A DNA stretch of 64,000 nucleotides from a bacterium (GTDB lineage Bacteria; Patescibacteriota; Patescibacteriia; UBA9934): the NCBI GenBank assembly GCA_027592325.1, contig JAQCKO010000003.1, positions 941 through 64,940 of the forward strand, given 5' to 3'. Position 1 is the first letter of the stretch; each line of letters begins with the position of its first letter. The position numbers were made by a program, and so were the translations under genes. Shown here piece after piece: positions 7,062-23,145 of this stretch. The notes under the pieces were generated by a model. It was not told the origin of the DNA and ran no database searches. It saw only the letters and a list, made by a program, of their open reading frames with translations.

Positions 7062-7136
7062 TCCGGGGTAGCTCAGTGGCAGAGCAGTTGGCTGTTAACC
7101 AATTGGTCGTGGGTTCGAATCCCACCCCCGGAGCCA
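7062..7136 (+). tRNA. tRNA-Asn (anticodon GTT)
   Basis: Hand-folded cloverleaf. Acceptor stem TCCGGGG/CCCCGGA, D arm GCTC-AGTGGCA-GAGC and anticodon loop CTGTTAA. T arm GTGGG-TTCGAAT-CCCAC, discriminator G and encoded CCA. Confidence 0.9.
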
Positions 7137-7145
7137 TCAAAGAAT

Positions 7146-7170
7146 CTCAGTTTTACTGAGGTTTTTTGTT
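7146..7170 (+). terminator. intrinsic terminator after tRNA-Asn
   Basis: Hairpin CTCAG-TTTTA-CTGAG followed by TTTTTTGTTT. Confidence 0.7.
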
Positions 7171-7215
7171 TGACCCAAGTGGGATTTCAGAACCCTAGTG
7201 TGATAACATGGCTCC
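7169..7215 (+). promoter_or_regulatory. conserved junction block P1 (TTTGACCCAAGTGGGAYKTCRGAACC...TGATAA), candidate promoter/leader
   Basis: Near-identical 40-45 nt blocks at 7169-7215, 13069-13110, 14152-14193, 21636-21677 and 22420-22447. Each lies between a junction terminator and the next cassette gene and contains the -35-like TTGACC. Confidence 0.4.
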
Positions 7216-7217
7216 AT

Positions 7218-7928
7218 ATGTTTTTAGAAGAAATGAAAACAACAGATTTTGAGGAAGGCAAAAAGTACATTTTTGTCATTCCAACGGGATCTACGGAACA
7301 ACATGGACCGTTCCTACCGCTTGGCACGGATTCTTACATTCAGGATGCAATTATCAATGGGGCCGAGAAACAGCTGACTGAGTTTATCTTTCTTCCAACG
7401 ATGCGGATTACTTGCTCAGAGGAACATGAAGGTTTTGCGGGGTCTGTTTGGATTTCACTCGATACTATGGAGCGTGTAATGAACGATATCTGTAAGTCGC
7501 TAGAGCCTTACGCTAAGAAGTTCATTTTCACTACGGCTCACGGTGGAAATATTGAGGTATTAAAGCGATTTGTTGAAAAGCATAAAAATGATTTTCCTAA
7601 TATCGAACTTCATTACGTAGACCCTGATAACGAAGAGATCGAGGAGAAGACGGTTGAATTGATTGGCGGACCAGTGGAAGATCATGCTGGTAACACGGAA
7701 ATCTCTATTATGCTTGGAATTCGTAACGACCTAACAATGATCCCAACTAAAGATTACCCGAAAAAGATTCTTGATAATGCTTTCAAAACAAATCGCTTGA
7801 AAGATTTCTCAGAAGACGGGATTGCCGATAACCATCCAGATTGGGTAATAGATGAAAGCCACGGAGAAAAGATACTGGACTGGATTGTTGAAGATTTTGT
7901 CGACTCATTGAAGAAGATTGTAAGCTAG
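7218..7928 (+). CDS. creatininase-family amidohydrolase
   Basis: IPTGSTEQHGPFLPLGTD motif. Start trimmed to the first ATG (7218) downstream of the tRNA, because the raw ORF 7047-7928 overlaps the tRNA. Confidence 0.7.
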   Translation: MFLEEMKTTDFEEGKKYIFVIPTGSTEQHGPFLPLGTDSYIQDAIINGAEKQLTEFIFLPTMRITCSEEHEGFAGSVWISLDTMERVMNDICKSLEPYAKKFIFTTAHGGNIEVLKRFVEKHKNDFPNIELHYVDPDNEEIEEKTVELIGGPVEDHAGNTEISIMLGIRNDLTMIPTKDYPKKILDNAFKTNRLKDFSEDGIADNHPDWVIDESHGEKILDWIVEDFVDSLKKIVS

Positions 7929-8668
7929 ATAAATTGATCCATCGCCATCAGGGACTCCAAGTTTGCCGTTCTGAATCCGTCCAGTATTCGGAGCCAATAA
8001 AAATTCACCGTCTTGTGCGGTGGATTTTTATTGGCTCTGGAGGGGGTAGGACAGTCCTGAGGACTGTCCGTGGGATGAGAACGGCCGGAGGCATATGTCG
8101 TCAGCAGACGACATGCCGAGGCCTGGTCCTGAGTGCGGTTTTCTGCAGAAAACCGACACGACGGCGAATCCCACCCCCGGAGCCAGGCTAGACGATCAGC
8201 ATCAAAGCTGATCGTTTTGCTTTTCTGAGGTATGTAATCAGATAGATTTAGTACCAAATTAAAAGGACTTCTTAATTCTAACAGTAATTTGCGATCCTTT
8301 AATTCTGGGTTCTGAACGAGGAAATTAATGAATTGGCGTTTTTCGTGTAATTCAGCACCTTCGAATATTTCTCGAGAACGACGAGCCACGGAAAGTACCG
8401 TGGCTACTGTCGTTTTGTAGTCATGATCTGCTTGAGTATGTTCTCCAAGCTCTATATTTAGACGCTGAAGACGATCTGTAAGCTCTTGCAGTTTTGTGTC
8501 GTAATCCTCCTTAGTAATCCGCACATTGAACTGGACACAACTTCGAAGGATTGGGATGGGTGTGTAGAAACGATTCTCAAACTGCTCGACGATGAGAGAA
8601 ACTGAACCATCAACAGCTTCAGCTCTGGCTACTTCACTGTTCTGAATGCGTCCAGTATCGGGAACCAA
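7925..8668 (-). CDS. hypothetical protein, probably a truncated or decaying gene
   Basis: Only ORF between R0 and R2. The N-terminal 150 codons (8230-8668) look protein-like. The C-terminal 95 codons read through the terminator, R0, the structured segment and R1 and are Pro/Ser/Arg-rich (likely non-coding read-through). A 25-codon homologous remnant (HEESQFINALVQTP) sits at 14954-15039. Confidence 0.3.
   Translation of the reverse strand: MVPDTGRIQNSEVARAEAVDGSVSLIVEQFENRFYTPIPILRSCVQFNVRITKEDYDTKLQELTDRLQRLNIELGEHTQADHDYKTTVATVLSVARRSREIFEGAELHEKRQFINFLVQNPELKDRKLLLELRSPFNLVLNLSDYIPQKSKTISFDADRLAWLRGWDSPSCRFSAENRTQDQASACRLLTTYASGRSHPTDSPQDCPTPSRANKNPPHKTVNFYWLRILDGFRTANLESLMAMDQFI
7968..7996 (+). 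repeat. junction repeat R1 (GTTCTGAATCCGTCCAGTATTCGGAGCCA), tRNA 3'-end-like
   Basis: 29-nt core ending in CGGAGCCA. Its last 6 nt begin a 47-nt near-perfect inverted repeat (7991-8037). Confidence 0.75.
7991..8037 (+). repeat. long hairpin GAGCCAATAAAAATTCACCG-TCTTGTG-CGGTGGATTTTTATTGGCTC (class B junction hairpin)
   Basis: 20-nt arms with one mismatch. The same hairpin core recurs at 9849-9885 after R3. Confidence 0.7.
8038..8164 (+). other. GC-rich highly structured segment with three perfect hairpins (candidate ncRNA or recombination-site arm)
   Basis: Hairpins GGACAGTCC-TGA-GGACTGTCC, ATGTCGTC-AGCA-GACGACAT with extended flanking pairing, and CGGTTTTCTG/CAGAAAACCG. GC content is well above the flanks, with an exact tRNA 3'-end copy at its 3' edge. 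Confidence 0.4.
8165..8185 (+). repeat. R0: exact 21-nt direct repeat of tRNA-Asn 3' end (CGAATCCCACCCCCGGAGCCA = 7116-7136)
   Basis: Perfect identity to the tRNA 3' end. Candidate att core delimiting a 1.07-kb unit. Confidence 0.85.
8192..8226 (+). terminator. intrinsic terminator (ACGATCAGC-ATCAAA-GCTGATCGT plus T-run)
   Basis: 9-bp perfect stem followed by TTTGCTTTTCT. A similar GACGATCAG hairpin follows R7 at 14846-14880. Confidence 0.65.
8639..8667 (+). repeat. junction repeat R2 (degenerate, ends GGGAACCA)
   Basis: GTTCTGAATGCGTCCAGTATCGGGAACCA followed by a degenerate class B hairpin (GCGGCGGATTTTT). Confidence 0.55.
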
Positions 8669-8724
8669 TAATCCTTCGCTAATTTCAGCGGCGGATTTTT
8701 GATACCCAAATAAAATTCAGAACC

Positions 8725-9819
8725 GTGGTAAAATCTTCGGGTGTGAAATTTGAACATAGAAGAACAGTCGAATATGTAGAATCGGCTAAAGTCAGTTTAG
8801 AAGATTTTGATGTTGGAGATACTCTAGAGGCATTGGCGGGTATTGCGTTAAAAGACGAAACTCAAAAGCGCGTATTGGAACTTCAAGAAAAAAAAAGGGG
8901 GGTAATGGAGTGGTTGAAAAATCAACGTACCAAAATTAACAATGGTGAAAAGATAGAATTGCATGAACAGCATTCGAAAATTTTCCATGTTGTTTATCAA
9001 GATGGCGCTTTCATCGGGAGTGACGGTGAACAAAGCTTTGATTTAACATTAGGCGAGTTGTTAACAGATGCATCTTGGGGCATTGATTATGATCTTGACA
9101 TGGATTCGGTGCCTTCAGATATAGCAAAGCAATATATTTTATCTAGAGCTAAAAGGATGCTGCGTGAATTGCTAAACAGGCAACTGGTTTTAATCGAATT
9201 GGATGTAAATAACGACGATCAGCAGAAGAAGTCCTTTTCAGCTGTTGGTGAAAGACAGAAGCAAGGAAGAGAGCTGATAGCTCAAGATCAGGGTTTTATT
9301 GCTGAAGAGATGATATTAAATTTAATAAAAAAACTAGTCATAGATCACGATTTGCCAGTTGAAATAGAGGAAGTAGATGTTTATGACGATGTGGTTAATA
9401 AAGTTGATTATGTTATCAGGAGAACTGATCGTAAAAGAGGGGTTGAAATTGATGTGATTGATGAAGAAAGTCCTGAACGGATAGGTGTTCAGTTCACACT
9501 CATGTTTCGAAAGGCCTCTATGGTTGGTAAGCGTAAAACAGTCTTACAGGCATTGAGAAGAGGTATGGTAGGTGAACTGCAAGATTTACAGGATATTGCT
9601 GTAGTAAATGTTCACCCAGCATATATAAAGCGATCAGTTAACACATGGAAAAAAACTAGAAAACCTGGCGGGCCGGACAATTGTTTAGAGGTAGCTGCTA
9701 AGGTAGATTTAGTTCAAAAAATGCTAAAAGATTTATTTTCAGAAAATGAAATAGATGAAATTGTAAGTGAAGTTTACGGCGTTGATAGAAATAAAACTAA
9801 AATTCGCAGAACCTATTAA
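8725..9819 (+). CDS. hypothetical protein
   Basis: 364-aa ORF filling cassette R2-R3, with no recognisable motifs. Confidence 0.5.
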   Translation: MVKSSGVKFEHRRTVEYVESAKVSLEDFDVGDTLEALAGIALKDETQKRVLELQEKKRGVMEWLKNQRTKINNGEKIELHEQHSKIFHVVYQDGAFIGSDGEQSFDLTLGELLTDASWGIDYDLDMDSVPSDIAKQYILSRAKRMLRELLNRQLVLIELDVNNDDQQKKSFSAVGERQKQGRELIAQDQGFIAEEMILNLIKKLVIDHDLPVEIEEVDVYDDVVNKVDYVIRRTDRKRGVEIDVIDEESPERIGVQFTLMFRKASMVGKRKTVLQALRRGMVGELQDLQDIAVVNVHPAYIKRSVNTWKKTRKPGGPDNCLEVAAKVDLVQKMLKDLFSENEIDEIVSEVYGVDRNKTKIRRTY

Positions 9820-9848
9820 GTTCTAACATCCTCCACGATGCGGAGCCA
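9820..9848 (+). repeat. junction repeat R3 (GTTCTAACATCCTCCACGATGCGGAGCCA)
   Basis: Followed by the class B hairpin AAAAATTCACCG-TCTTGTG-CGGTGGATTTTT (9849-9885). Confidence 0.75.
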
Positions 9849-9936
9849 ATAAAAATTCACCGTCTTGTGCGGTGGATTTTTGTATTTCCAATCACCCTCC
9901 CAGATTTCTTGCCGAAATGATACACTTGGTCACAAT

Positions 9937-10761
9937 ATGAACGTGAAAGAATTTTATAAACATTCATCAAAGGAAATCGTCGATCTATTTCGTGATTTTA
10001 TTGAAAAAGATTGTTTCAGCCAATATCCTGAATTAAAGGATAAGTTGAGCTTCGTGCTCACGGGATCCGTACCCTCGAATCACTATGATCAATATAGTGA
10101 TATTGATTGTAATTTGTTATTCGAGAACGAATCTGATCTGGCCATGATTAAGGAAGCTGTAAAAAAGTATAAGATGAGCTTACGGGAACAAAAACTTCCG
10201 ATTCAGCTTCACTCCCCAATGACGTTTAGCGAATTGGAAAACTCCTTGACCAATTGGAATCATGATTCGGCTTTACGTGAACACGCGGCAGCACTCGTCA
10301 TTTTTGACCCACACGATCGCTATAAAACAATTCAATCGCGGATCAAATGGTATCCAAAAGAAGTATTACAAGAAAAGATTCAATGGCTTTTTGCCGAATC
10401 TATTTTTGCGTTTGAAGATCGTCTTGTTGTGGCCGTGGAACGTGAAAATGATCTCTATGTACGCTCGTTGAGTTTACAGATAGTGAAACTGCTAGCCAAC
10501 GCACTCATCATGATAAATGACCGCTATCCTGTATTTGAAAAGCATATATATTTTAATCTCCGTGATCTCGGTGAAAATGAGTTTTGTGCTCAAATCGACT
10601 TGCTCCTGAGCATGACCGAGACAGATGAAATCCAAAGGTCTATTACTGATATCATCGATACCGTGGAACAACGCCTTATTAAAGCTGGTTTTATGGAAAA
10701 ACAGCCCAAAGAGCATTGGATACAGCTTCGTCCTAAGTTTCAGATTGAAGGATGCGCCTAG
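9937..10761 (+). CDS. polymerase-beta-superfamily nucleotidyltransferase domain protein
   Basis: LTGS-x10-DID matches the hG[GS]-x9-13-DhD minimal nucleotidyltransferase signature. Helical C-terminal domain. Start trimmed to ATG 9937. Confidence 0.6.
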   Translation: MNVKEFYKHSSKEIVDLFRDFIEKDCFSQYPELKDKLSFVLTGSVPSNHYDQYSDIDCNLLFENESDLAMIKEAVKKYKMSLREQKLPIQLHSPMTFSELENSLTNWNHDSALREHAAALVIFDPHDRYKTIQSRIKWYPKEVLQEKIQWLFAESIFAFEDRLVVAVERENDLYVRSLSLQIVKLLANALIMINDRYPVFEKHIYFNLRDLGENEFCAQIDLLLSMTETDEIQRSITDIIDTVEQRLIKAGFMEKQPKEHWIQLRPKFQIEGCA

Positions 10762-10841
10762 AAGGATTCAATGAATTTTGCAAATGTTCCATGCTGACTT
10801 AGACCTGGTATACTCATTCAAACCTCACAAAGAGTTTTTTT

Positions 10842-11861
10842 ATGGCAGAAAGACCAACGTTTAATCCTGAAATCAGAGAACTGCATGAAGGTGTAAAGAA
10901 GTTTGAAATCGTCGATGTAGAAGGTAATCGGTTAGGAGTTTGTGAATCTGTATTTGAAAAACACCCAACCAATGAACAGTACAAAGTTTTGCAGAGATGT
11001 GAACTTACTGCTGCAAACGGTGAAAAAATTGACTTGCTTCAGATGCCTGATGGTGAAAGAAGCAATGTCGAGGTTTTATTTGTCGACAATCCACGGATTG
11101 AAGAACAATATCTGATGCGTGTTGGTACCGTAGTTTTAGTTAATCGAGACATGACCTCCATTGATGACATTGCCGTATTATTGCATGAGATGGGACATGA
11201 CGAGCAGGCTCGCTCTTCTGATGGTTTCTCAGAAGTTTACAATGCGATGCACATTAACAACGACCTGCCATATGATGATTTTTCACGAGCGTTTCGTGAT
11301 TTAAGCGACAGTTTTCGAGTTCTTTATGCTTATATTGAAATGGTAGATCGTGATGTACCAATGCACGTTAAGCTTGATCAGGATTTAGAAGAAGAAATTA
11401 GAAATGCCGTAGCGGAATTTAAGCGTTTACATTTAGACGATGCAAAAGAATCTGATCGCATTAAAAAAGAAGTTGGTAGGGGTTATCTAGAGTGGTCCGA
11501 GGATGAGGAGCGTTATAACAAAGATCACCTAGCTGGGATTCGGGCCTTATCGTCCTCTACAGAGAGTGTTCTAAAAAAACATCCAAAGCTTCGTGGCATT
11601 TACACCGATATGGTTTTATGGCAGGAACGGGATGCTTCTGACCGAGCACGCGCTCGACTGAACGTTTTTGTCGAACAGGGAATGAATCTTGTTGACGCAA
11701 AGTTTCCTCTCACCGATCGAGAAATAGCTATGGCTGAAAATAACTTAACGCACAAATCGAGAAGGATGCAGGAGGCAACGAGGGCCTATCTTGAAGATCG
11801 AGACAAGACGATCGATGAGCGGCTTAAATTCTCGTATCAAACGTATGAATGTACGCATTGA
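10842..11861 (+). CDS. hypothetical protein with HExxH (zincin-like) motif, possible metallopeptidase
   Basis: LLHEMGHDEQ motif. Shares a cassette with the nucleotidyltransferase, with no junction repeat between them. Confidence 0.45.
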   Translation: MAERPTFNPEIRELHEGVKKFEIVDVEGNRLGVCESVFEKHPTNEQYKVLQRCELTAANGEKIDLLQMPDGERSNVEVLFVDNPRIEEQYLMRVGTVVLVNRDMTSIDDIAVLLHEMGHDEQARSSDGFSEVYNAMHINNDLPYDDFSRAFRDLSDSFRVLYAYIEMVDRDVPMHVKLDQDLEEEIRNAVAEFKRLHLDDAKESDRIKKEVGRGYLEWSEDEERYNKDHLAGIRALSSSTESVLKKHPKLRGIYTDMVLWQERDASDRARARLNVFVEQGMNLVDAKFPLTDREIAMAENNLTHKSRRMQEATRAYLEDRDKTIDERLKFSYQTYECTH

Positions 11862-11884
11862 TTGGTGAATTCTGTTCAACGGCA

Positions 11885-11913
11885 GTTCTAACATCCTCCA
11901 CGATGCGGAGCCA
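11885..11913 (+). repeat. junction repeat R4 (identical core to R3/R5)
   Basis: GTTCTAACATCCTCCACGATGCGGAGCCA followed by a class A terminator (ACCGG-TTTCA-CTGGT plus T-run). Confidence 0.75.
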
Positions 11914-12014
11914 ACAAAAACATACCGGTTTCACTGGTGTTTTTTTGTTTGTTTCAAAGCTATCTAGAGTGGGAATTGAACTTTCTTGATATAATGAATC
12001 TAGAAGATTGAATT

Positions 12015-13001
12015 ATGCGCAAATCATTCGATATTCCTCAACGCAGGTCAGATGTTGAGAAGCCCCCTGCACCAGAACTTAGGTTCTTCTTCTCTGCTCA
12101 CGGACAAATTCAAGACTATGAAGGTATCCAAGAAGCTTTACAGGATGCTGATGTTTTTGTTGTAGAAGCACACGGATGGAACGAAGATGATCTAAGGTAT
12201 CTTCAAGAAATTTCAGATGGAACCAAGGTTCCGAGGCACATAGAGGAAAAACGTGAACCACAAGATGTTATTGAATATGAGGAAGACTTGCTTTATAAAA
12301 CTGGTAAACGGATTGAAATCGTTGACGTACCCGAAGGCCACGAATTAGACAAAGAAGACGATGGAACAGCTGGGATATCTGAGGCTGCGCGCACTTTTAT
12401 TGCTCGTGGAGATCTAGAATCTGCACTTGCAGCGCTAGATACGGCAGTAAAGATGAATGCGGAGTACATTAGAAAAAAAGATGAGTATATTGAAGGTCAA
12501 TTGGATGCTCTTTTGAAGAAGCTTTCAATTGAGGATCCAAATGCGAAAGTGTTGGTTCAGATAGGATCGACACATACAGGCATTTCGCACGACTTAAGAA
12601 GAGAAGGAATAGCAAGTCGAGTACGTAATAGTGTAAAATTCGATTTTAAAGATGAGCTTGTTCGTTCTTATCGATTCAAAAAATCTCCTGAGAGGGATCT
12701 ATTAATAAAAGTCTTGATTGAAGAGGTGTTAAGAACAAGTTTTCAAGATCAACTCAGAAAGGTGCCATATATTCAGCGAGTCGATTTTTTCAGAAAGCAT
12801 TTAGCAAATATAACTGAGGAACAGATTCAAAATTTGGGCTATAAGACAGAGTCTAAGTTCTTTGATCGAGTGATTATGCGCTATGAGAATTACACACCAG
12901 AGCTTAAGAGACAGATTTTGACTGAATCATGGCAAGTTGTCTTCGGGGCGGCTATCGATGAAAGTATTGCAAAGTTAGTAAATCAGCAGCATGATCGATG
13001 A
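12015..13001 (+). CDS. hypothetical protein
   Basis: 328-aa ORF in cassette R4-R5, with no recognisable motifs. Confidence 0.5.
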   Translation: MRKSFDIPQRRSDVEKPPAPELRFFFSAHGQIQDYEGIQEALQDADVFVVEAHGWNEDDLRYLQEISDGTKVPRHIEEKREPQDVIEYEEDLLYKTGKRIEIVDVPEGHELDKEDDGTAGISEAARTFIARGDLESALAALDTAVKMNAEYIRKKDEYIEGQLDALLKKLSIEDPNAKVLVQIGSTHTGISHDLRREGIASRVRNSVKFDFKDELVRSYRFKKSPERDLLIKVLIEEVLRTSFQDQLRKVPYIQRVDFFRKHLANITEEQIQNLGYKTESKFFDRVIMRYENYTPELKRQILTESWQVVFGAAIDESIAKLVNQQHDR

Positions 13002-13006
13002 TCTTG

Positions 13007-13035: not shown

Positions 13036-13118
13036 GCAAAAGACATCGGGTTTACTGGTGTTTTTTTTGTTTGACCCAAATGGGACTTCGGAACAAGAAT
13101 TTGATAAACTGGTTTTAT

Positions 13119-15359: not shown

Positions 15360-18293
15360 ATGGTCAGAAGATCAGAATATTATCGTATCAGTGAATTTGA
15401 GAGAGGTAGTGGTCATGAGCGTCCTCGTACTTCTATGGAGGGGGTTGAGGATTATGAGGCGCGAGAGCAGTCTTTTTTGTACGCTGCTCAAGATGAGAAG
15501 CGTGATTTGAAGGATTTGCTGAATGAGGTGCGTCCGTCGACGAGGTATTGGAGTGGCATGAAATCTCGAGTGCTAGAAAGTTTGCGGCGTATTGTTGGCG
15601 TTAAGGACTATGCGTCGATTTCTGATTCGCTTTCTAGTGAGGCTGCGCTAGACGCTTCTGGCGTTGAAGCGGAGGTTGCAGCCATGCGCGAAGATTTGGA
15701 AGTCCGAGAGCTTGAAGCTATTCTTGCGGAGTCACGTGGATCATCGCTTTTGGCGCGTCTCCGAGAGTTTTCATTTTCCTTTTTAGCAAAGCGTCAGCGA
15801 ATTTCGTTCGATGATAAGGGCGGCGAAGTGTCTAGCAAGCCAACCGCAGCGATCGAGAAGATTCAAAAAGTAGAGGAAAAGCGAGAAGAAATTTCCCTTA
15901 CCGATTGGCTTGAGGCGAAGATTCGTCGCGCTCGAGCGGAACGTATGTCCGATGGAGCTTCGGATGATGAGGTGCGGTTGGTTGATGATGAAATTTCGGA
16001 ATGGTTTCGAGCGAAGTTGGATCATTTTTTTGTGAGTGGTGGTGATCCTACGGATGAACAGGTATTGATTGATTGGCTTGAATCTGACGGTGAAGAAGTT
16101 GTTCCATCGGTTGAGACTACGGTTGTTCCGCGAGATAGCGATATATCTTCATCTGAAAAGCCGGGTGATGATGAAGAAGCGATTGAGAAAATGCTTGCGG
16201 AGATTCGCGGGCGTGAGGGGTTTTTGAATTCACTTTCTAACCATCGACGATATGTTCATGCTTTTCAATTAGCTTCGTTTTTAATGGCATCTGACGGAGG
16301 GAGTGCAGAAGCGTACAGGGATCTGGGGTCGGATATTGAAAAAGAAATGCAAGCAGGATTGGGAGAGAAGGTTGATTTAGAGGGGGTGCTTGAGGAGGAT
16401 CTTGATCATTTGGTGATGTACCGCTCGAATGAGCTTTTGAAAGCGTTTATTGAGGCGCCTGATCATCCTTTGGCTGCGAAGGGATTGCAAATGATGGCGG
16501 CGGAAAATCCATGCTATTTTGCGGGCGGATTATCTGCATTTTTTGAGCAGAGTTATTATAAAGATTTGCTTGAAGAAGTGATTTTTGCTGATCCTCGGTA
16601 TACGCTTGGCGTATTAGCTGAAGCAAAAGGGGATCAGAAGAACAGTGCTCTTGCCGATGAGGTTACCACTTTACTAAAGGATTCAACTCAGCTATCGGCG
16701 GAAACAATGCTAGTGCTGTCTTCTGAGGATATGCCAGCTTTTGAACGTGATAGGCTAGCTGATATTTTCCCTTTTTTGGTACGTGACAATGTGGGCGGTG
16801 AATTGTTTGACCAGATTCTGGGGGATGATCATGCGTATGTGGATGGACTCGTGTATGTGGCTTCGAATGATTTTGGGATTATGTCTGAGCGGGCCGACGA
16901 TACATTGAATGTAATTATGGACGAGCGCGTGGCTAGAATGAATAACTTGCAGGAGTCAGGGGACCCATATGCATCGATTAGGGGGGCGAGTGTTGATGAG
17001 CTGTATGCAACCATGGCCTATGGTAACTATGCAGCTCCGTGGATGGTCGATACGATGTTTAAAGAGCTTTCAGCGAAGATGAGGGAGGATGGCCTGGGGT
17101 CGAAGCAATTGGTTGATCGGCTGGGCGGACTTCAATTTCAGCAGTTTGCGGAAAATCTTTCAGAGGTAGGGCTATTTGATGAATTTTTGGTATTGGCCGT
17201 CGCTGAGCATCGCGGGAAGGCGCTCATTGATCGTTTTATTTCTGGGATTACTTCTGATAATGCTCGTGAATCGCTCGGACATATTACTCAGATGATTCAA
17301 CTCACCTCGCATACGGGTGTTCAATCGTATTTGAAGGAAGCTATCGAGCGCGAGTACGTGACAGCTCGTGATTCTGGCGACAAAGATCAACAGCGTGCTT
17401 ATGGAGTGCTTTCTTCTTTATTTGGCGAAGAAGCGACATGGCTTGATTCTAATGAATATATGGTTTCACCGCAGGAGAAGCTGGCCATTTCAGAGCTCTT
17501 CGATGAGAGTGGTCGCAGTGTTTCAGAGAATCGTTTTTATCAAGATATAGATAGTGATGGGCATTGGTCGTTTCTTAGCTGGGTGCAGCAACAGAAGCAG
17601 CTTGGGTTTGATGTGGAAGATCATGGAACCTTCATTCGTATGGTTAGGAAGCAAGAGAATCGTGTGGTGATTTTGTACGGAAATAAGCCTCAAGCTTCTC
17701 CACACGGTGCTACGAAACTCAAGGCCATGGATTATGCTCAATTTCAGCAGTTTAAGAAGAGTGCTGGACTAGGTGATGGGATCGCGGACGTACCGAGAGA
17801 TCGGTGGGATGACGGTATGAATGGAGTTGCTGATATGCGTGAACATATGCAAGCGAATGGCTTAGATGGGCAGATTTTGGTGCATCGTGGTCATTCGTAT
17901 TGGAATCAGTATACACTTGAAGATGTTTATGATTCGACCAGGCTTGTTATTGATGGGTCCTGCGGGGGAGCGGGGACTGTTCAGAATGCAATTCGTGCGA
18001 ATCCTGATGTGCAGATGCTTTATACTCGAGGGATTGGTTCAACGGGTATTAATGATACATTGGTTCGAAATATTAATGCGTTATTGATTGCAGGTAAAGA
18101 TATCGTTTGGAGTGATTTGCGAAGTGAAACTGGCGGAGAGTTCGGCGCCCTCTATAGCGATGCAGAGACTAGAGAAAAGGCTGAGGGATATTATGATAAG
18201 TATGTTTTTCCAGATCAGAAACAAGGTCTTTCTACGCGTGTTGTGCAACGATTTTTAGCCGGCGATACAGATCCCATTATAACAGCAGGTTAA
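15360..18293 (+). CDS. large acidic hypothetical protein (977 aa) with C-terminal His...Cys pattern whose order matches clan-CD (caspase-like) peptidases
   Basis: Long Asp/Glu-rich helical N-terminal region. C-terminal QILVHRGHSYW then RLVIDGSCGGAG, each after a hydrophobic strand, with His before Cys. Start uncertain (15360 or a downstream Met). Confidence 0.5.
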   Translation: MVRRSEYYRISEFERGSGHERPRTSMEGVEDYEAREQSFLYAAQDEKRDLKDLLNEVRPSTRYWSGMKSRVLESLRRIVGVKDYASISDSLSSEAALDASGVEAEVAAMREDLEVRELEAILAESRGSSLLARLREFSFSFLAKRQRISFDDKGGEVSSKPTAAIEKIQKVEEKREEISLTDWLEAKIRRARAERMSDGASDDEVRLVDDEISEWFRAKLDHFFVSGGDPTDEQVLIDWLESDGEEVVPSVETTVVPRDSDISSSEKPGDDEEAIEKMLAEIRGREGFLNSLSNHRRYVHAFQLASFLMASDGGSAEAYRDLGSDIEKEMQAGLGEKVDLEGVLEEDLDHLVMYRSNELLKAFIEAPDHPLAAKGLQMMAAENPCYFAGGLSAFFEQSYYKDLLEEVIFADPRYTLGVLAEAKGDQKNSALADEVTTLLKDSTQLSAETMLVLSSEDMPAFERDRLADIFPFLVRDNVGGELFDQILGDDHAYVDGLVYVASNDFGIMSERADDTLNVIMDERVARMNNLQESGDPYASIRGASVDELYATMAYGNYAAPWMVDTMFKELSAKMREDGLGSKQLVDRLGGLQFQQFAENLSEVGLFDEFLVLAVAEHRGKALIDRFISGITSDNARESLGHITQMIQLTSHTGVQSYLKEAIEREYVTARDSGDKDQQRAYGVLSSLFGEEATWLDSNEYMVSPQEKLAISELFDESGRSVSENRFYQDIDSDGHWSFLSWVQQQKQLGFDVEDHGTFIRMVRKQENRVVILYGNKPQASPHGATKLKAMDYAQFQQFKKSAGLGDGIADVPRDRWDDGMNGVADMREHMQANGLDGQILVHRGHSYWNQYTLEDVYDSTRLVIDGSCGGAGTVQNAIRANPDVQMLYTRGIGSTGINDTLVRNINALLIAGKDIVWSDLRSETGGEFGALYSDAETREKAEGYYDKYVFPDQKQGLSTRVVQRFLAGDTDPIITAG

Positions 18294-18294
18294 T

Positions 18295-18549
18295 ATGAAT
18301 AAACGATTATTTGCACTTATTCATTCATCTGATTTAGCGAAGGATGAACAGTATCGATTTCTTGGTATGCTTCGAGCTTCTTCTGAGTTAGATCAGAAAA
18401 AACTGGCGGTACTATTTTTGGAAGACCCTGCTTCTTTGCGAGCTGTTTTCGAAAATTTTGACGCGAAGCGTTCGGCGAAGGAGGACGGGAGTGTGGAGCT
18501 TTTTGAGCAGGCTATTGATAAAGAAAAGGAGTTTTTGCAAAATCTCTAA
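18295..18549 (+). CDS. small hypothetical protein (84 aa), translationally coupled to the upstream large protein
   Basis: Starts 1 nt after the stop of the 977-aa ORF. Confidence 0.45.
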   Translation: MNKRLFALIHSSDLAKDEQYRFLGMLRASSELDQKKLAVLFLEDPASLRAVFENFDAKRSAKEDGSVELFEQAIDKEKEFLQNL

Positions 18550-18618
18550 AAACGGCTCCATTAACAAGACCCCATTCGCCGTTGCGTTTGGGGTCTTTCG
18601 CCGTGAACTGAGCGTGTC

Positions 18619-19368
18619 TCAATTCGTTTGGCAGTCGTAGGCGCCGTCAGCGTTGACAGTGCAGTTCATTGGGATGATGAGGACCTCGTCGCCGACCTCT
18701 GCGACGTCGAAGAGGTAGTTCATCCAGGCACCATCCACGCCGACGCAGCCTTGGGTGTATTGCCCGGGCGTCCAGGAGTGGATGAGGATGTCTCCCCCCA
18801 TCGCGGTTTGTTGCGACGGTACCCTGCCGCTCTCGATGTGTTTCAGCATGCGTTTCATGGTGGGCTCGTCGATGACACCCTGCGTAAATGCACGCTTGAT
18901 GTCGCGACGGCGGGGGTAGTCGATGCGGAGGCCCTGCTCGAAACTCGTCTTGTACGGGTAGGCGCGATCGGAGTCGCGCGTCGCCTTCACGTGGACGACG
19001 TACTTGCCCTCGGGCGTTGACGACCAGTCGCGGCGGGTCTTTGGCCCTTCAGGCGTCTTCCCCATGTTCACGGGGATGCAGACAGTTTCGCCGCTCTGTA
19101 CCACCAGATAGCCTTCGTAATAAAGGGCGATGTGGTGGGTGTCCTTGAAGACCACCAGGGTGCGCTTCCCGGTTGTTCGACCGTCTGGTCGGTACTCGAT
19201 GGGAAGCTTGCCAAGGTCGGCGGGGCAGGGCGACTCCTTCTCGTAGGAGTAAGGGTTGTCGCTCCACGGGTGGGGAGCGGTCGCGGATGTGGTTATGATG
19301 TCGGCTGGTTTCTGAGGAGCGCAAAATGTCAGGTTTGAGGTCAGGGCGAGAATGAATGCTCGGAGCAT
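18619..19368 (-). CDS. secreted L,D-transpeptidase (YkuD-like) domain protein, compositionally foreign
   Basis: Signal peptide, then IHSWTPGQYTQGCVGV matching the LD-transpeptidase His/Cys catalytic motif. Markedly higher GC than all neighbours, and a high-GC gene typically carries long shadow ORFs on other frames (18628-19020, 19049-19324, 19132-19338). Confidence 0.6.
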   Translation of the reverse strand: MLRAFILALTSNLTFCAPQKPADIITTSATAPHPWSDNPYSYEKESPCPADLGKLPIEYRPDGRTTGKRTLVVFKDTHHIALYYEGYLVVQSGETVCIPVNMGKTPEGPKTRRDWSSTPEGKYVVHVKATRDSDRAYPYKTSFEQGLRIDYPRRRDIKRAFTQGVIDEPTMKRMLKHIESGRVPSQQTAMGGDILIHSWTPGQYTQGCVGVDGAWMNYLFDVAEVGDEVLIIPMNCTVNADGAYDCQTN

Positions 19369-19930
19369 GGCATCTCCAGCATGAAGTTAAAGAATTGACT
19401 GACCACTAACCTTAGCTTAAATGTGTTCATTTTGTCAAGGGGGTAATTGTTTTTACTCCTATCAAGCTTGTCAACAAGATTTTCCTGTTTCTCGCTTATT
19501 TTGATATAATGTGCAGCCGATCTCGCTCAGACGCTTTGCGCTCCTGATACGGAATCTGCCTATTGTGCAACTACGGATACGGCGGTCTATTATGTGACGC
19601 CAGATTGCCAGCGGTATTTTTTGAACGAGGATATTTTCATTAGTTATTATTCTTCTTGGGATGAAGTGAAGGAGAATGAGGAACTTTCCTTTATGCCTTC
19701 GGGGCCAAATTATCCCCTTTAATTTGGAACGCCTGTAAAGACGGTGAACGATCCCAAGGTCTGCATATTACTCCTTCCACTTTTGCCACTACCAGTATTT
19801 TTTTGTATTTGTTTCTTGCTTTGAAGAAAAATTACAAAATCAACTGGGTATTACTGTGGCTATTGTAGATATGGATGAGTATTGGCTAGACCGAGAATCC
19901 GATGCCTTCAAAGATGGCCGCGATCAGGAA

Positions 19931-19958
19931 CAGCTCGAATCCATGTGATGCGGAGCCA
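19931..19958 (+). repeat. junction repeat R8 (short variant ...GCTCGAATCCATGTGATGCGGAGCCA)
   Basis: Ends CGGAGCCA. Followed by the class C hairpin GGGACTCGAAC-TATCCAAT-GTTCGAG plus T-run (19961-19998). Confidence 0.65.
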
Positions 19959-20024
19959 ATGGGACTCGAACTATCCAATGTTCGAGTTTTGTTTTATGCT
20001 AGAGAAAAATTCGGTTCTAATTAT

Positions 20025-20432
20025 ATGAATCATATAGCAACAGGGATATTGATAGACAAGGATGGAAAACTCTTGGCCTATCTACGAGATGACAAACCGA
20101 GCATTCCGTTTCCTAATCATTGGGATCTTTTTGGTGGATACGTAGAAGATGGGGAAACGAATGAAGAAGCTCTTGTGCGTGAAGTGCAGGAAGAATTGGG
20201 ATGTAACCTCAAAGATTACAGCTTCTACAAAGATTATGAGTGTTTGAAGGGCGATGACCATGTAAATGTGAAGCATGTTTTTGTTGCGCACATTGATGCA
20301 AAAGCGGATGACCTGACTTTATATGAGGGTCAAGAGCTGCGTGGTATTCCACTTGAAGAAATACATGAGTACAAATGGGCAAACATTTTGGGAGTGATTT
20401 TGGATGACTTCGTAAAAGATCAAGCAAACTGA
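20025..20432 (+). CDS. NUDIX hydrolase
   Basis: Nudix box GGYVEDGETNEEALVREVQEELG. Start trimmed to ATG 20025, downstream of the junction hairpin. Confidence 0.75.
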   Translation: MNHIATGILIDKDGKLLAYLRDDKPSIPFPNHWDLFGGYVEDGETNEEALVREVQEELGCNLKDYSFYKDYECLKGDDHVNVKHVFVAHIDAKADDLTLYEGQELRGIPLEEIHEYKWANILGVILDDFVKDQAN

Positions 20433-20464
20433 GCCATCATAGGCTTAACTCCTGCCACTTGACC

Positions 20465-20493
20465 GTTCTGAACCCGTTCAGTATTCGAAGACA
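20465..20493 (+). repeat. junction repeat R9 (degenerate end CGAAGACA)
   Basis: GTTCTGAACCCGTTCAGTATTCGAAGACA, preceded by a 40-nt extension identical to 14777-14816. Followed by the hairpin CCTCAGCA-GAAA-TGCTGGGG plus T-run and a GGGGTTCGAACTG motif. Confidence 0.7.
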
Positions 20494-20598
20494 ACATCGC
20501 CTCAGCAGAAATGCTGGGGGTTTGTTATTGTTTTTGGACTTCCCGAAATGGGGTTCGAACTGATATAGTCCGAGAAGTAATTTTTTAACTCTCTAGTT

Positions 20599-20784
20599 AT
20601 GAAGACAATGAAATGTGATATGTGTGAAGCGACCGCAGAAGGCGAAACATTTGAGGCGTGGATGCAGGCTCTCATGCCTCATTACATGCAAGTTCATGCA
20701 GACGTAATGAATGATCCTAAGAATGGGAAAGAGGAGCAGATGAAATGGATGGTTGAAAATAAGGCAAGGTTTGAGGCTGCCTAA
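20599..20784 (+). CDS. small hypothetical protein (61 aa, CxxC near N-terminus)
   Basis: MKCDMCEATAEG. Sole ORF in cassette R9-R10. Confidence 0.4.
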   Translation: MKTMKCDMCEATAEGETFEAWMQALMPHYMQVHADVMNDPKNGKEEQMKWMVENKARFEAA

Positions 20785-20890
20785 AATCACGCGGCAACTA
20801 TCGATTGTTATGCCGAAAAATAATCGCTAAACCAAATCTGACACTGTGAAGGTCGGGGTGCTAGCATGCCCTTTGTACTTCTGAATAGCA

Positions 20891-20918
20891 GTTTTACATC
20901 CTCTACGACGCGGAGCCA
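20891..20918 (+). repeat. junction repeat R10 (GTTTTACATCCTCTACGACGCGGAGCCA)
   Basis: Ends CGGAGCCA. Followed by the same CTCAGCAGAAATGCTGGG hairpin and CCCGAAATGGGGTTCGAACTG motif as R9. Confidence 0.7.
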
Positions 20919-21104
20919 ACAAAATCTCAGCAGAAATGCTGGGATTTTGTTATTGTTTTTGGATTACCCGAAATGGGGTTCGAACTGGTAAAGTATATCT
21001 GTATGGATTCGATCAAATTTCACCCGAACGATGGCATGCATGTCTTGAAGACGATTGGCTAACCATACATGAAACAGAAATTAAATGATCACCGAAGAAA
21101 TACC

Positions 21105-21491
21105 ATGAAACTCAAAATCCAAACAGCTAATGCCCCCTTGCCAAAAAGTAGCCCTCACTCCCAGGCCATCGTCGCGAATGGTTTTGTTTTCACTCAAGGT
21201 TCCATTTGCTTAACAACTGAAGGTAAACTTCTTGAGGGAACCATCGAAGAACAGATTCATCAAATCATGAAAAATCTGAAAGCTATTTTGGATGAAGCGC
21301 ATGTGTCATTTGAAGATGTAGTGAAGTCCACCATTTATCTTACAGACATGTCGTTATACGGAAAGGTAAATGAGATTTATGGGAGCTACTTCTCAGATCC
21401 ATACCCAGCACGGGAGACCGTATGCGTTTCCGAGCTTCCTCTTGGCGCGAAGGTTGAAATCAGCATGATCGCCGCCTTAACTATCCAATAA
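21105..21491 (+). CDS. ridA: RidA/YjgF-family reactive-intermediate deaminase
   Basis: PARETVCVSELPLGAKVEI C-terminal motif, about 128 aa. Start trimmed to MKLKIQT. Confidence 0.75.
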   Translation: MKLKIQTANAPLPKSSPHSQAIVANGFVFTQGSICLTTEGKLLEGTIEEQIHQIMKNLKAILDEAHVSFEDVVKSTIYLTDMSLYGKVNEIYGSYFSDPYPARETVCVSELPLGAKVEISMIAALTIQ

Positions 21492-21575
21492 CCTAATGAT
21501 GCATTTGCGTGATGAAGTGACAGCTGGTGTGCATTTTCTCCATACTCACCTTCACCTCAGCATAAACACTCCCCA

Positions 21576-21604
21576 GTTCGGTAAAAAGGTAATCTAGGGA
21601 GCCA
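21576..21604 (+). repeat. junction repeat R11 (degenerate: GTTCGGTAAAAAGGTAATCTAGGGAGCCA)
   Basis: 29 nt retaining GTTCGG...GGAGCCA. Followed by a class A terminator (CATATG-TTTTA-CAGGTG plus T7) and block P4 (21636-21677). Confidence 0.55.
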
Positions 21605-21684
21605 GCAAAAGACATATGTTTTACAGGTGTTTTTTTGTTTGACCCAAGTGGGACGTCAGAACCAGAATCTGATAAACTGTCATT

Positions 21685-22335
21685 ATGAAACGGCTAAAAG
21701 ACACATTTCTTGAGACAATACAGTCACAGATCAACTTTACTGAAAAAACGTTATTTGAAGTTGGATGTGGAGATGGTTCTCGTACGGTGCAAATGGCAAA
21801 ATACTGCAAGCAAATTTTTGCCATAGAACCTGACGCTGAAAAGGTGCAGTTAGCTATAAAGTCGAATGCACAAAAAAACATTACCTACTCCGTTGGATAT
21901 GCCGAGCAGCTACCAGCGGGAGATCATACATTTGATATCGTGATCTTCACACTCTCTCTGCATCACGTAGCAATCAAGAAAATGAATGTAGCTTTAGACG
22001 AAGCGATTCGTGTAGTAAAAAAGAATGGATACATAATTGTTTTCGAACCAGCCTTCAATGGATCATTTTTTGAAGCCGAGATCGCTTTTGATGCATGTGA
22101 TGGTGATGAGCGGATGCAAAAGGCATCCGCTTACGCACACATACTCTCACATCCGAATCTTAAAGAGGTGGCGGAACTGAATGACGAAACAGTTTTTCAG
22201 TTTGATTCGTACGAAGATTTCGTTTCGTCCATGAATCCATCAATTCGAACAGCTGATGAAATCAATACCTTTCTCGAAAAGCATAATTACGTCTTAAAGG
22301 CAGATCGTCGCATCAATATTTTTCAACCTTATTAG
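21685..22335 (+). CDS. class I SAM-dependent methyltransferase
   Basis: FEVGCGDGSRT motif I. 216 aa. Confidence 0.7.
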   Translation: MKRLKDTFLETIQSQINFTEKTLFEVGCGDGSRTVQMAKYCKQIFAIEPDAEKVQLAIKSNAQKNITYSVGYAEQLPAGDHTFDIVIFTLSLHHVAIKKMNVALDEAIRVVKKNGYIIVFEPAFNGSFFEAEIAFDACDGDERMQKASAYAHILSHPNLKEVAELNDETVFQFDSYEDFVSSMNPSIRTADEINTFLEKHNYVLKADRRINIFQPY

Positions 22336-22360
22336 ATTTTCTAAAACCGCCAAATTCATC

Positions 22361-22389
22361 GTTCTGAATCCGTCCAGTATGCGGAGCCA
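22361..22389 (+). repeat. junction repeat R12 (GTTCTGAATCCGTCCAGTATGCGGAGCCA)
   Basis: Followed by a class A terminator (CATCTG-TTTTA-CAGGTG plus T-run) and block P5 (22420-22447). Confidence 0.8.
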
Positions 22390-22485
22390 GCAAAAGACAT
22401 CTGTTTTACAGGTGATTTTTGTTTGACCCAAGTGGGACGTCAGAACCATTGACCTTTATTTTTTAATCCTAGATACTTTAACAGT

Positions 22486-22983
22486 ATGGATGACGTATAC
22501 ATTGGTAAAGGAAAGCTTGCAGGAAAGGGTGTGTATGCAGCTCGTGATTTCGCAGTCGGCGAAGTCGTGAAATATTACAATCTCAAATCTTTTTCACAAT
22601 TAGATTTTGATAACCTCCCCGATGAAGAGAAGATGTTTGTACATTCCTTTTGGGGCGAGATGTTTTTATTTCCAGAACCATCTCGATATACAAATCACTC
22701 AGCAAATCCAAATACCCGATCGGATCTTAAGAAAATGTGTGATATTGCCATAAGACCCATCAAAAAAGGAGAAATGATAACTACTAATGCGACTACCGAG
22801 GTGCGCAAAGAACTACAAACATTTTTGGAGGCTCACGAGGGTATTGAGATTAAAGATTTCAAATGGCTCAAGGGTGGTTACCGAAATGCTACTGTTTCCT
22901 ACTTGGTATCAAACGGGTCTAAGAAAGTGCTCAATCTAAAGCGAATCGATGGAAATTGGCGTATTTTGAAAGAGAGTGTTTAA
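22486..22983 (+). CDS. SET-domain protein (putative protein-lysine methyltransferase)
   Basis: N-terminal GKGVYAARDFAVGEVV, then RYTNHSANPN (compare SET NHSCxPN) and GEMITTNAT (compare GEELTxxY). 165 aa. Confidence 0.5.
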   Translation: MDDVYIGKGKLAGKGVYAARDFAVGEVVKYYNLKSFSQLDFDNLPDEEKMFVHSFWGEMFLFPEPSRYTNHSANPNTRSDLKKMCDIAIRPIKKGEMITTNATTEVRKELQTFLEAHEGIEIKDFKWLKGGYRNATVSYLVSNGSKKVLNLKRIDGNWRILKESV

Positions 22984-23011
22984 GTTTATATGTACTTCGC
23001 TCCATTTCACC

Positions 23012-23040
23012 GTTCGGAACCCGTCCACCAATCGGAGCCA
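23012..23040 (+). repeat. junction repeat R13 (GTTCGGAACCCGTCCACCAATCGGAGCCA), last copy
   Basis: Followed by the class C hairpin GGGACTCGAAC-TGTTAAAG-GTTCGAG plus T-run (23041-23078). No further copies downstream. Confidence 0.75.
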
Positions 23041-23145
23041 ATGGGACTCGAACTGTTAAAGGTTCGAGTCTTGTTTATGCCAAAGAAGATAGTAGTTCAG
23101 AGAGTAGCAATGTTCAATCATACGAAATACTGATAACATACCTTT

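Follow-up and report, generated by a model that had tools for sequence, protein, structure and literature searches.

This study addresses a 64,000-nt stretch of DNA (hereafter the window) from a bacterium of the Patescibacteriota lineage UBA9934 (assembly GCA_027592325.1, contig JAQCKO010000003.1, positions 941 to 64,940), in which an intact tRNA-Asn(GTT) gene is followed by an array of 14 short repeat copies located on the same strand and spread over 16 kb. Based on sequence comparison, the 29-nt repeat unit is identified as the last conserved codons of a large serine recombinase (LSR) gene of Patescibacteria. The array itself probably resulted from successive integrations by LSRs at the 3′ end of tRNA-Asn and subsequent reductive decay. 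Moreover, the locus is likely to represent an integration hot spot for elements, some of them temperate tailed phages, that carry a Patescibacteria-specific LSR family.

Repeat Array Anchored at tRNA-Asn

The tRNA-Asn(GTT) gene (7062-7136, + strand) is the single tRNA gene predicted by ARAGORN in the window and matches the Rfam tRNA family with a score of 73.9 bits. Its 3′ end, ...CCCACCCCCGGAGCCA, holds the core common to tRNA and repeats, and the gene represents the attB-side anchor of the array. Scanning of the whole 64 kb revealed 12 occurrences of the octamer CGGAGCCA, all on the + strand and all inside 7129-23040, which correspond to the tRNA end and 11 repeat copies; 1.4 occurrences are expected by chance, and the maximum in shuffled sequences was four. 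Outside this interval, neither octamers nor 29-mer matches were found in the remaining 48 kb of the window. A preliminary description, made from the letters of the sequence, had reported the tRNA, 14 copies (R0 to R13) of an element of roughly 29 nt and 11 copies ending in the octamer. The tRNA, the octamers and the positions of all copies were recovered in the present analysis, but the element is not uniform. R1 differs from the 29-mer type (P-type) in that it reproduces the tRNA 3′ end exactly over 20-21 nt, R2 and R9 possess degenerate cores (CGGGAACCA and CGAAGACA, respectively), and R8 and R11 are divergent, while R3, R4 and R5 are identical over the full 29-mer. R1 is also the only true copy of the tRNA 3′ end; R8 matches it loosely, and the other copies share at most 8 nt with the tRNA.

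The stem-loop with T-run that had been attributed to each copy follows nearly all of them and is weak after R11 and R13 (part of this assessment was made by eye). A terminator scan yielded 26 sites vs. 13.4 ± 3.8 expected, many of them directly 3′ of repeats, and several of the downstream hairpins contain G-T pairs that are workable in + strand RNA only. In many copies, the shared sequence exceeds 29 nt and continues with the hairpin, a box (TTTGACCCAAGTGGGAYNTCAGAAC) and an extended -10-like element (TGnTAnAnT) near the ATG of the next gene. The tRNA itself has the same hairpin/box/-10-like module at its 3′ side. Furthermore, this module occurs after R5, R6, R11 and R12, and after tRNA-Asn in L116, L060, L021 and L206 (loci from other genomes are designated by L numbers, individual proteins by P numbers).

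The 29-mer as Integrase Coding Sequence

In order to search for further copies, one genome per species was scanned with a degenerate 29-mer pattern, which resulted in at least 119 loci (832 kb in total), nearly all of them from metagenome-assembled genomes (MAG) of Patescibacteria. All hits encode WLR[IVLFM][VL]xx[VIF]RT on the opposite strand, and the good copies of the window encode WLR[IVL][VL]xx[VIF]RT on the minus strand. At some loci, the motif forms the end of a long open reading frame (ORF). Full-length ORFs ending in the motif are LSR genes as deduced from their Pfam domains (Resolvase, Recombinase, Zn_ribbon_recom), with products of 532 amino acids in L002, 592 in L015 and 498 in L110. 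With regard to the search for further copies with a recombinase beside one of them, which had been recommended in the preliminary description, the cognate integrase family was identified in related genomes (L002, L015, L110) and on the phage contig L128 discussed below.

Variability in a set of 108 distinct 29-mers is greatest at the third positions of the minus-frame codons, and an Arg codon switches between AGA and CGA. Moreover, the tail past the motif shows synonymous changes in an IYIPDL segment across loci (cca/ccg, att/ata/atc, tat/tac), which provide independent supporting evidence for a coding origin. The 29-mer has in common with the tRNA only the 6-8-bp core and a T-loop-like similarity, as expected of an attP/attB pair. 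The repeat is therefore the last conserved part of the LSR coding sequence and not the tRNA mimic that had been proposed.

Integrase Remnants and Probable Position of the Crossover

No intact recombinase or transposase domain was found in the window by tblastn and by Pfam analysis of the scanned ORFs. The earlier statement that no recombinase is present anywhere thus holds for intact genes, but two LSR remnants were located on the minus strand at 8186-8515 and 14846-15012. Remnant 1 covers approximately the C-terminal 110 codons, from the coiled-coil to the end, and matches the LSR of L110 in tblastn (E 7e-18). It runs in frame into R1, reading ...DRLA-WLRGWDS, which is antisense tRNA. Since it is fused to a copy of the tRNA 3′ end, the remnant is of the attL type, and together with the adjacent segment 8033-8185 it constitutes an old attL-type junction. 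More than 50 homologues of remnant 1 were examined, and all are LSR C-terminal fragments. In databases, more than 200 relatives exist, mostly N-terminally truncated, 92-405 amino acids in length and in many cases encoded on long chromosomal contigs. Protein database searches for an intact LSR of this subfamily gave almost only truncated fragments; intact examples were obtained from the loci matching the DNA pattern and from a viral scan. Remnant 2, detected by tblastn, consists of about 55 codons with a frameshift and includes a hairpin-encoded ...TTSISTDRPS-WLR segment; comparable proteins are P0003, P0006 and P0014.

The relatives of remnant 1 share ...SPNWL, which is followed by one of two endings. 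The first is of the motif type (WLRIVxDVRT..., WLPLVDEFRTLNW...). The second, WLGGWDSNPRPIG with a subsequent stop, corresponds to tRNA-Asn read backwards to a TAA in the anticodon loop; for the tRNA-Asn of the window, antisense translation of the 3′ end gives WLRGWDSNPRPIG and a stop. Because the same LSR bodies end either in the motif or in antisense tRNA-Asn, the attachment site is placed inside the integrase ORF. In L121, an ORF with the antisense-tRNA ending physically overlaps tRNA-Asn. Antisense endings derived from other tRNAs were also observed (WLPRLDSNQRPSD, WLRGQDSNLRP). Further endings from non-Asn tRNAs (...DSNQRP..., ...GSNLRP...) occur in P0039, P0033, P0146 and others as well as in L125 (5598-5740). 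As the same integrase family is fused to the antisense of non-Asn tRNAs, the choice of target varies within the family.

Junctions of the window are mosaic. R3, R4 and R5 combine one left arm with three right arms, R0 and R3 combine one right arm with two left arms, and the tRNA and R6 have a common right arm; in each of these mosaics, homology breaks at CGGAGCCA. Similar arrangements were found in other genomes. L206 and L193 possess a common right arm (89% identity over 138 nt), joined to tRNA-Asn in the former and to a P-type site in the latter, and the tRNA flank of the window matches the flank of a P-type site in L003. A metagenome scan with the pattern CGGAGCCA-N30-55-CCCAARTGGGA was too loose, since 118 of 120 loci were chance matches; L193 and L206 were its useful results. 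Hybrid junctions resembling attL and attR, with exchange of arms at a short core, are a feature of both the window and its relatives.

The comparison of close relatives at this tRNA, which had likewise been recommended, is provided by L249. Its HtrA protein shows 88% amino acid identity, its DNA is syntenic with the window at 77-80% nucleotide level over 6.5 kb upstream, and its tRNA is 97.6% identical. From the CCA onward, L249 is unrelated to the window, i.e., the two loci differ exactly from this point of the tRNA on. Based on these junctions, we infer that crossover takes place in the 6-8-bp core (C)GGAGCCA, which corresponds to the W-L codons, and that attP would be located inside the integrase ORF.

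Two further arrangements were noted at related loci. L249 carries a GIY-YIG endonuclease gene (296-544) between the HtrA gene and tRNA-Asn, where the window contains a 45-amino-acid ORF only. In L002 (555-2498), a full-length LSR gene follows a segment in which its last 50-85 codons (approximately) are duplicated in inverted orientation and joined to a different motif-type ending; L047, L067, L076, L105 and L115 are arranged similarly. This looks like site-specific inversion or nested integration in opposite orientation.

Phage Partner and Distribution in Patescibacteria

Scanning of a viral collection gave one hit, the 39-kb tailed-phage contig L128 from IMG/VR, which encodes a full-length LSR of 529 amino acids (PHROG integrase) beside holin, amidase and tail-fibre genes. 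The protein ends in ...WLRILDGFRT-KPEMRK..., and its site within the ORF, GTTCTGAAACCGTCCAGTATGCGGAGCCA, is one third-position base off R12. The occurrence of an LSR with a near-R12 site on a phage indicates that at least some of the elements using this site are temperate tailed phages. Other intact or partial elements (L125, L116) carry restriction-modification or different cargo in addition to an HTH_17 excisionase-like gene.

Within the at least 119 loci, 20 of the 27 tRNAs are tRNA-Asn, and in 19 of these 20 tRNA-Asn loci the copies are situated downstream of the tRNA and share its strand. Two to four copies within 8 kb were counted in 15 loci, and L030 from Peregrinibacteria combines tRNA-Asn with four copies. 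The pattern was observed across MAGs labelled Uhrbacteria, Saccharibacteria, Peregrinibacteria and Andersenbacteria. Concerning the host, the named relatives of the window's HtrA protein among the matches listed belong to Uhrbacteria, Andersenbacteria, Falkowbacteria and the Patescibacteria group and share about 50% identity.

A series of decay states can be assembled from these loci. The homologue of the nucleotidyltransferase (NTase) cassette in L116 is preceded by a 266-amino-acid LSR remnant and an HTH_17-like gene, whereas the window has a stub only. Within the window, the R1-R2 cassette contains an integrase remnant only, and the remnant of about 55 codons is situated after R7. The sibling contigs L120, L122, L123 and L124, which were searched for cassette polymorphism within the population, are 99.9-100% identical to the window and in this respect uninformative; L123 breaks inside a repeat module.

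Some tRNA-Asn genes at related loci are unusual. In L036 (920-1312; also L044 and L078), an insertion of about 270 nt apparently splits the gene within the anticodon loop, and isolated matches to the 3′ half of tRNA-Asn were obtained at other loci. These observations agree with group I introns recently described in Patescibacteria tRNA-Asn genes (PMC13011429).

Proposed Mechanism of Array Formation

In the proposed mechanism of serial integration, attP would lie inside the last part of the integrase ORF, where the W-L codons (TGGCTC) are the reverse complement of GAGCCA, that is, the last acceptor base, the discriminator and the CCA of the tRNA, and crossover would occur within the 6-8-bp core. 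At attL, the integrase body would be left beside the tRNA and obtain its C-terminus from the antisense tRNA (WLRGWDSNPRPIG and stop). At attR, the original last codons (WLRIxDxxRT and a variable tail) would be found at the distal end of the element after integration. With every new integration into the tRNA site, older elements would be pushed away from the tRNA, and the internal junction made in this way would comprise the left arm of the new element and the right arm of the older one. The 29-nt repeats would then represent displaced integrase 3′ ends, and their tRNA likeness would reflect the relatedness of attP and attB. Integrase bodies and most of the element DNA would since have been deleted in the small genome. 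The remaining compact unit would consist of a terminator hairpin, the box with the -10-like element, one to three cargo genes and the next site; apart from these units, the two integrase remnants are preserved. Of the two possibilities raised in the preliminary description, the second one, serial accretion at a tRNA attB, is close to the reading reached here. The notion of an array delimited by recombination sites and anchored at the tRNA 3′ end is also supported.

Several points weigh against this mechanism. An intact LSR is missing from the 64-kb window, and neither circular or excised forms nor cassette polymorphism within the population were seen, with the four sibling contigs being 99.9-100% identical. 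Canonical LSRs recombine attP with attB only, with a 2-bp staggered crossover, and an occupied tRNA site is an attL; repeated integration at the same tRNA would need relaxed LSR directionality. Furthermore, the right-arm stubs are uniform, as hairpin, box and -10-like element end few bases before the ATG of the cargo, and homology between the left arms stops abruptly at the boundary of the 29-mer. Such uniform edges are not obviously expected from independent random deletions. One module type is associated with different cargo in several genomes. Finally, the argument based on codon positions is partly circular, since the search patterns fixed many columns, and the crossover position was deduced from sequence comparison.

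Alternative Explanations

A less probable explanation is an integron-like platform operated by a serine recombinase, in which non-autonomous cassettes would be moved singly at the tRNA-Asn core by an integrase acting in trans and provided by a phage or by another part of the genome. Each cassette would comprise a terminator, the box, a promoter element, the gene and a P site, and the conserved module of about 115 nt would then be a functional cassette site and no decaying gene end. More than 90% of the motif copies in the at least 119 loci are solo copies, as the W is preceded by an open frame of fewer than about 100 codons, and the modules have sharp edges at either side, the cargo between them being unrelated. 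Modules of one type are combined with different cargo in the window as well as in L069, L106, L116, L060 and L206, the three identical 29-mers R3-R5 have unrelated tails, and the mosaic junctions exchange at the core, all in accordance with such a platform. Cargo families also recur in distant arrays (creatininase in L092, NTase in L116, kinase in L021, RidA in L064). However, the homologues of the cargo elsewhere show just 27-54% amino acid identity, a level that does not demonstrate recent transfer, and no single-cassette circle or positional polymorphism was observed. Moreover, intermediate decay states with integrase remnants exist (8186-8515, 14846-15012, L116), the variation of the sites resembles that of coding sequence, and LSR directionality opposes free exchange between attP-like and attL-like sites. 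Although unlikely on balance, mobilization in trans is kept as a substantial alternative in view of the uniform stubs, abrupt edges, shared modules and the directionality of LSRs.

An extended version of mobilization in trans, to be regarded as tentative, envisages an undescribed serine integrase of Patescibacteria that has its site in its own 3′ coding end, targets the CCA of tRNAs (chiefly tRNA-Asn), swaps its C-tail and serves, in trans, a phylum-wide integron-like capture array. The swap to an antisense-tRNA C-tail could then function as an integration-state switch, and the integrase 3′-end module would double as a terminator and promoter unit.

Homologous recombination as the process that builds and shuffles the array, with the modules of about 100 nt and the tRNA as portable homology, through which DNA acquired from relatives would replace single cassettes, and the integrase sites as passive relics, is improbable. 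The modules indeed show 80-95% identity between genomes that cannot be aligned elsewhere in their cargo and flanks, several module types are represented by two to five copies each in the window, and a 53-nt exact repeat joins two cassette ends. However, exchanges of arms break at the 8-bp core and not at variable points inside the modules, the attL-type fusions of integrase body and antisense tRNA represent real site-specific events, and the origin of the sites is left unexplained by homologous recombination.

Regarding structure at the RNA or single-strand level, folds of 33-mers from both strands were no better than those of shuffled sequences (z -1.2 to +1.0). Base-pair covariation was absent in the 108 distinct 29-mers, for which mutual information peaks between neighbouring columns and candidate stem pairs are complementary in just 41-51% of the copies. 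An Rfam scan of 6500-24000 returned no match except the tRNA. Since the 29-mer exhibits neither a hairpin nor covariation, it is neither attC-like nor an RNA mimic, and folding of the junctions on both strands, as suggested in the preliminary description, thus gave no attC-like hairpin and no tRNA-like fold. An element acting at the RNA level (a tRNA-like minihelix in 3′ untranslated regions cut by tRNA enzymes) or a genome-wide repetitive extragenic palindromic (REP) or terminator motif is very improbable: the copies are located directly 3′ of + strand genes and directly 5′ of terminators and have a tRNA-like GCCA end, but they lack a stable fold, covariation and an Rfam family, are tightly linked to tRNA-Asn and integrase ORFs, and, contrary to the even scatter named earlier as a refutation of the array, are confined to 7129-23040 with zero copies in the other 48 kb, the motif being tied to tRNA-Asn elsewhere as well. 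The compensatory stems CATC/GATG and CGTCG/CGACG, seen by eye, were rejected as no pairing signal was obtained in the 108 copies and the fold z was about 0.

The longer module is an imperfect palindrome solely by means of the terminator and the inverted tRNA-like box, and in the fold of the tRNA-proximal module the T-arm pairs with the box (z -4.4). Imperfect palindromes of about 90 nt, comprising T-arm or P site, terminator and box, are present at 7110-7200 (z -4.4), 14091-14184 (z -3.6) and 22359-22452 (z -2.6). With the terminator palindrome omitted, a dyad of about 50 bp is obtained from the two arms; its centre is the CCA, to which the crossover was assigned. The terminator loop at the centre of the long dyad was considered as a crossover point and rejected, as mosaic junctions retain perfectly matched hairpins.

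Cassettes and Cargo Genes

All repeat copies are located on the + strand. The tRNA-proximal right-arm module (7137-7217, +) is composed of a terminator hairpin (7146-7160), the box TTTGACCCAAGTGGGATTTCAGAACC, which corresponds to the tRNA 3′ end in inverted and diverged form, and the extended -10-like element TGTGATAACAT. It leads into a creatininase gene (7218-7928, Pfam Creatininase), whose cassette is ended by the P-type copy R0 (7968-7996; WLRILDGFRT on the minus strand). Downstream, a structured GC-rich (0.63) segment of 153 nt (8033-8185, +) starts with the inverted tRNA-3′-end-like sequence TGGCTCTGGAGGGGGTAGG and ends in R1 (8165-8185), to which remnant 1 is attached. This segment is bounded by inverted and direct tRNA-Asn 3′-end-like sequences and folds with -86.6 kcal/mol (z -6.5). 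Possible origins are a decayed tRNA-like gene, a small inverted-repeat element and recombination between inverted sites; an interpretation of the segment as transfer-messenger RNA, intron-bearing tRNA or group I intron was rejected as neither ARAGORN nor Rfam gave support.

The degenerate P-type copy R2 (8639-8668) is followed by hairpin, box, -10-like element and a gene encoding 364 amino acids (8725-9819). R3 (9820-9848, P-type) reads WLRIVEDVRT with a stop codon immediately after it and opens the NTase cassette, which contains an NTase/DUF4037 gene (9937-10761) and a gene for 339 amino acids (10842-11861). The P-type copies R4 (11885-11913) and R5 (13007-13035) precede a gene for 328 amino acids (12015-13001) and a methyltransferase gene (13119-14009), respectively. 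R6 (14093-14121; P-type, WLRILNGFRT), the right arm of which is nearly identical to the tRNA flank, precedes a uridine-kinase-like gene (14204-14776). R7 (14817-14845; P-type, WLRIVDGFRTVKWQELSL and stop) adjoins remnant 2, and the largest cassette body (15013-19930) comprises ORFs for 977 (15360-18293, +) and 84 amino acids (18295-18549, +) and a YkuD L,D-transpeptidase gene (18619-19368, -). The latter gene has a GC content of 0.60 vs. 0.44 for the window and probably came from outside the phylum.

In the distal part of the array, the divergent copy R8 (19931-19958; GCTCGAATCC...GCGGAGCCA) has a spacing between that of the tRNA type and the P type and is followed by a NUDIX gene (approximately 20026-20432). 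R9 (20465-20493; P-type, decayed core) reads CLRILNGFRT, and an ORF for 61 amino acids lies next to it (20599-20784). R10 (20890-20918; P-type, WLRVVEDVKL) precedes a RidA/L-PSP gene (21069-21491). R11 (21576-21604; WLPRLPFYRT, core GGGAGCCA) is succeeded by a second methyltransferase gene (21685-22335), and R12 (22361-22389; P-type, WLRILDGFRT), the copy close to the phage LSR site of L128, by a SET-domain gene (22486-22983). The array terminates with the last P-type copy R13 (23012-23040; WLRLVDGFRT) and its hairpin, beyond which housekeeping genes for a DsbD/HMA protein and a P-type ATPase are located. In summary of the Pfam assignments, the cargo includes creatininase, NTase/DUF4037, two methyltransferases, a uridine-kinase-like protein, NUDIX, RidA and a SET-domain protein, which together with the deviating GC content of the YkuD gene bears out the heterogeneous cargo and the one gene of foreign composition noticed earlier.

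The 53-nt exact repeat mentioned above (14777-14829 and 20425-20477) covers the stop codons of the unrelated uridine-kinase-like and NUDIX genes, an integrase 'tail' and the start of R7 and R9. In most cassettes, the extended -10-like element TGnTAnAnT is positioned 7-12 nt before the ATG, e.g., within 7170-7217, 13085-13118, 14170-14203 and 21655-21684. This short distance suggests that the corresponding mRNAs may be leaderless or near-leaderless.

Comparison with Known Systems

The LSRs of the present loci resemble those of phages (phiC31, Bxb1 and TP901-1 type) in their domain architecture, in short sites with minimal identity between attP and attB, and in at least one phage-borne example (L128). 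The domain set of Resolvase, Recombinase and zinc ribbon was identified in L002, L015 and L110, and L128 encodes a PHROG integrase; the window contributes C-terminal remnants only. Known LSR attP sites lie beside the integrase gene, and their attB usually lies inside a protein-coding gene and not at a tRNA 3′ end. It is also atypical for LSRs to occupy a single site repeatedly.

Tandem tRNA islands (Islander-type islands; accretion and cis-mobilizable element models for integrative and conjugative elements) likewise feature an intact tRNA at one end, att repeats in the same orientation with the newest nearest to the tRNA, degraded integrases and heterogeneous accessory cargo. An intact tRNA with same-strand att-derived repeats downstream was found here, and the same applies to 19 of 20 other tRNA-Asn loci. 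Such islands differ in that they depend on tyrosine integrases and duplicate a tRNA 3′ fragment of 15-60 nt, whereas the elements described here use an LSR, share 6-8 bp with the tRNA and possess a repeat that is integrase coding sequence. Repeats in the form of displaced tRNA 3′ copies are represented by R1 only.

Integrons share with the array its single direction, compact cassettes of one to three genes between sites, a fixed anchor and unrelated cargo. They are distinguished by an IntI-type tyrosine recombinase gene next to attI and by attC sites, imperfect palindromes with a single-strand fold, neither of which was found here. Integron cassettes are mostly promoterless and depend on a common Pc promoter; most of the present cassettes have their own promoter-like element and terminator and are thus probably not promoterless, and their site originates from a serine integrase gene. 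No IntI-type or Phage_integrase domain was detected by Pfam in the scanned ORFs of the window, in which serine-recombinase traces were the only ones. The integron architecture put forward in the preliminary description is therefore not supported as a mechanism, given that attC-like folds, covariation and IntI are lacking and most cassettes carry their own promoter-like element.

The integration-dependent immunity of mycobacteriophages, reportedly described by Broussard et al. in 2013, is said to involve an attP in the repressor gene and a tyrosine integrase. It is comparable in that attP lies in a coding region and integration at a tRNA alters the C-terminus of a phage protein, and different in the gene concerned (repressor) and the type of integrase (tyrosine).

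Archaeal 'suicidal' tyrosine integrases of the Sulfolobus spindle-shaped virus (SSV) type also have their att site in the integrase ORF, so that integration at a tRNA splits the gene to opposite ends of the element, and they also show chimeric N and C parts between elements. Recombinases with such in-gene att sites are exclusive to archaea according to a review (PMC8371274). In contrast, the present system involves a bacterial host and a serine recombinase (no PF16795-type tyrosine recombinase split into inactive N and C halves), and only the last 10-35 codons (approximately) are displaced and replaced by about 13 antisense-tRNA codons. Because the catalytic and DNA-binding domains are kept, integration need not inactivate the LSR.

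Prochlorococcus tycheposon islands (10.1101/2020.12.28.424599) are similar with respect to a streamlined host, stacked elements adjacent to tRNAs, fragmented integrases, extra att remnants and small adaptive genes. In that study, a tyrosine recombinase was present in 910 of 937 integrase-carrying elements, repeats were partial tRNAs, and hallmark replication genes were reported (10.1101/2020.12.28.424599). Unlike in tycheposons, no tyrosine recombinase, partial-tRNA repeats or hallmark replication genes were found here.

In the literature searched, neither serine integrases with tRNA-Asn as their target nor arrays of this kind from Patescibacteria were found to be described. Tandem islands anchored at a tRNA are already known; according to the comparisons above, the new aspect would be a serine integrase of bacteria whose ORF contains attP and which uses a tRNA end as its target throughout a phylum.

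Other Features of the Window

Outside the array, an ORF with a Bac_rhodopsin domain (36482-37090, E 2e-16) adjoins a rhodanese gene in this Patescibacteria-type genome. An HI0933-like flavoprotein gene (27139-28394) is split into the overlapping ORFs 27139-27906 and 27768-28394, which suggests a frameshift, a pseudogene or an assembly error.

Implications for Patescibacteria and Large Serine Recombinases

Patescibacteria have tiny genomes with few recognised mobile elements, and their acquisition of accessory genes is poorly understood. The results of this study point to a concrete acquisition route, in which LSR elements land at the 3′ end of tRNA-Asn and leave small accessory genes behind, such as those for kinases, NUDIX proteins, methyltransferases, RidA and creatininase. 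A tRNA 3′ end would be an unusual target for the LSR family. Moreover, the only integrases described with attP inside their ORF are archaeal tyrosine integrases (PMC8371274), so that a bacterial serine counterpart would be new. If the proposed mechanism is true, naturally diversified attP/attB pairs would be added to a family that is widely used for genome engineering. For genome annotation, 'hypothetical proteins' of about 111-250 amino acids encoded beside tRNA-Asn in these MAGs are to be regarded as integrase remnants, and the regions adjacent to tRNA-Asn as islands.

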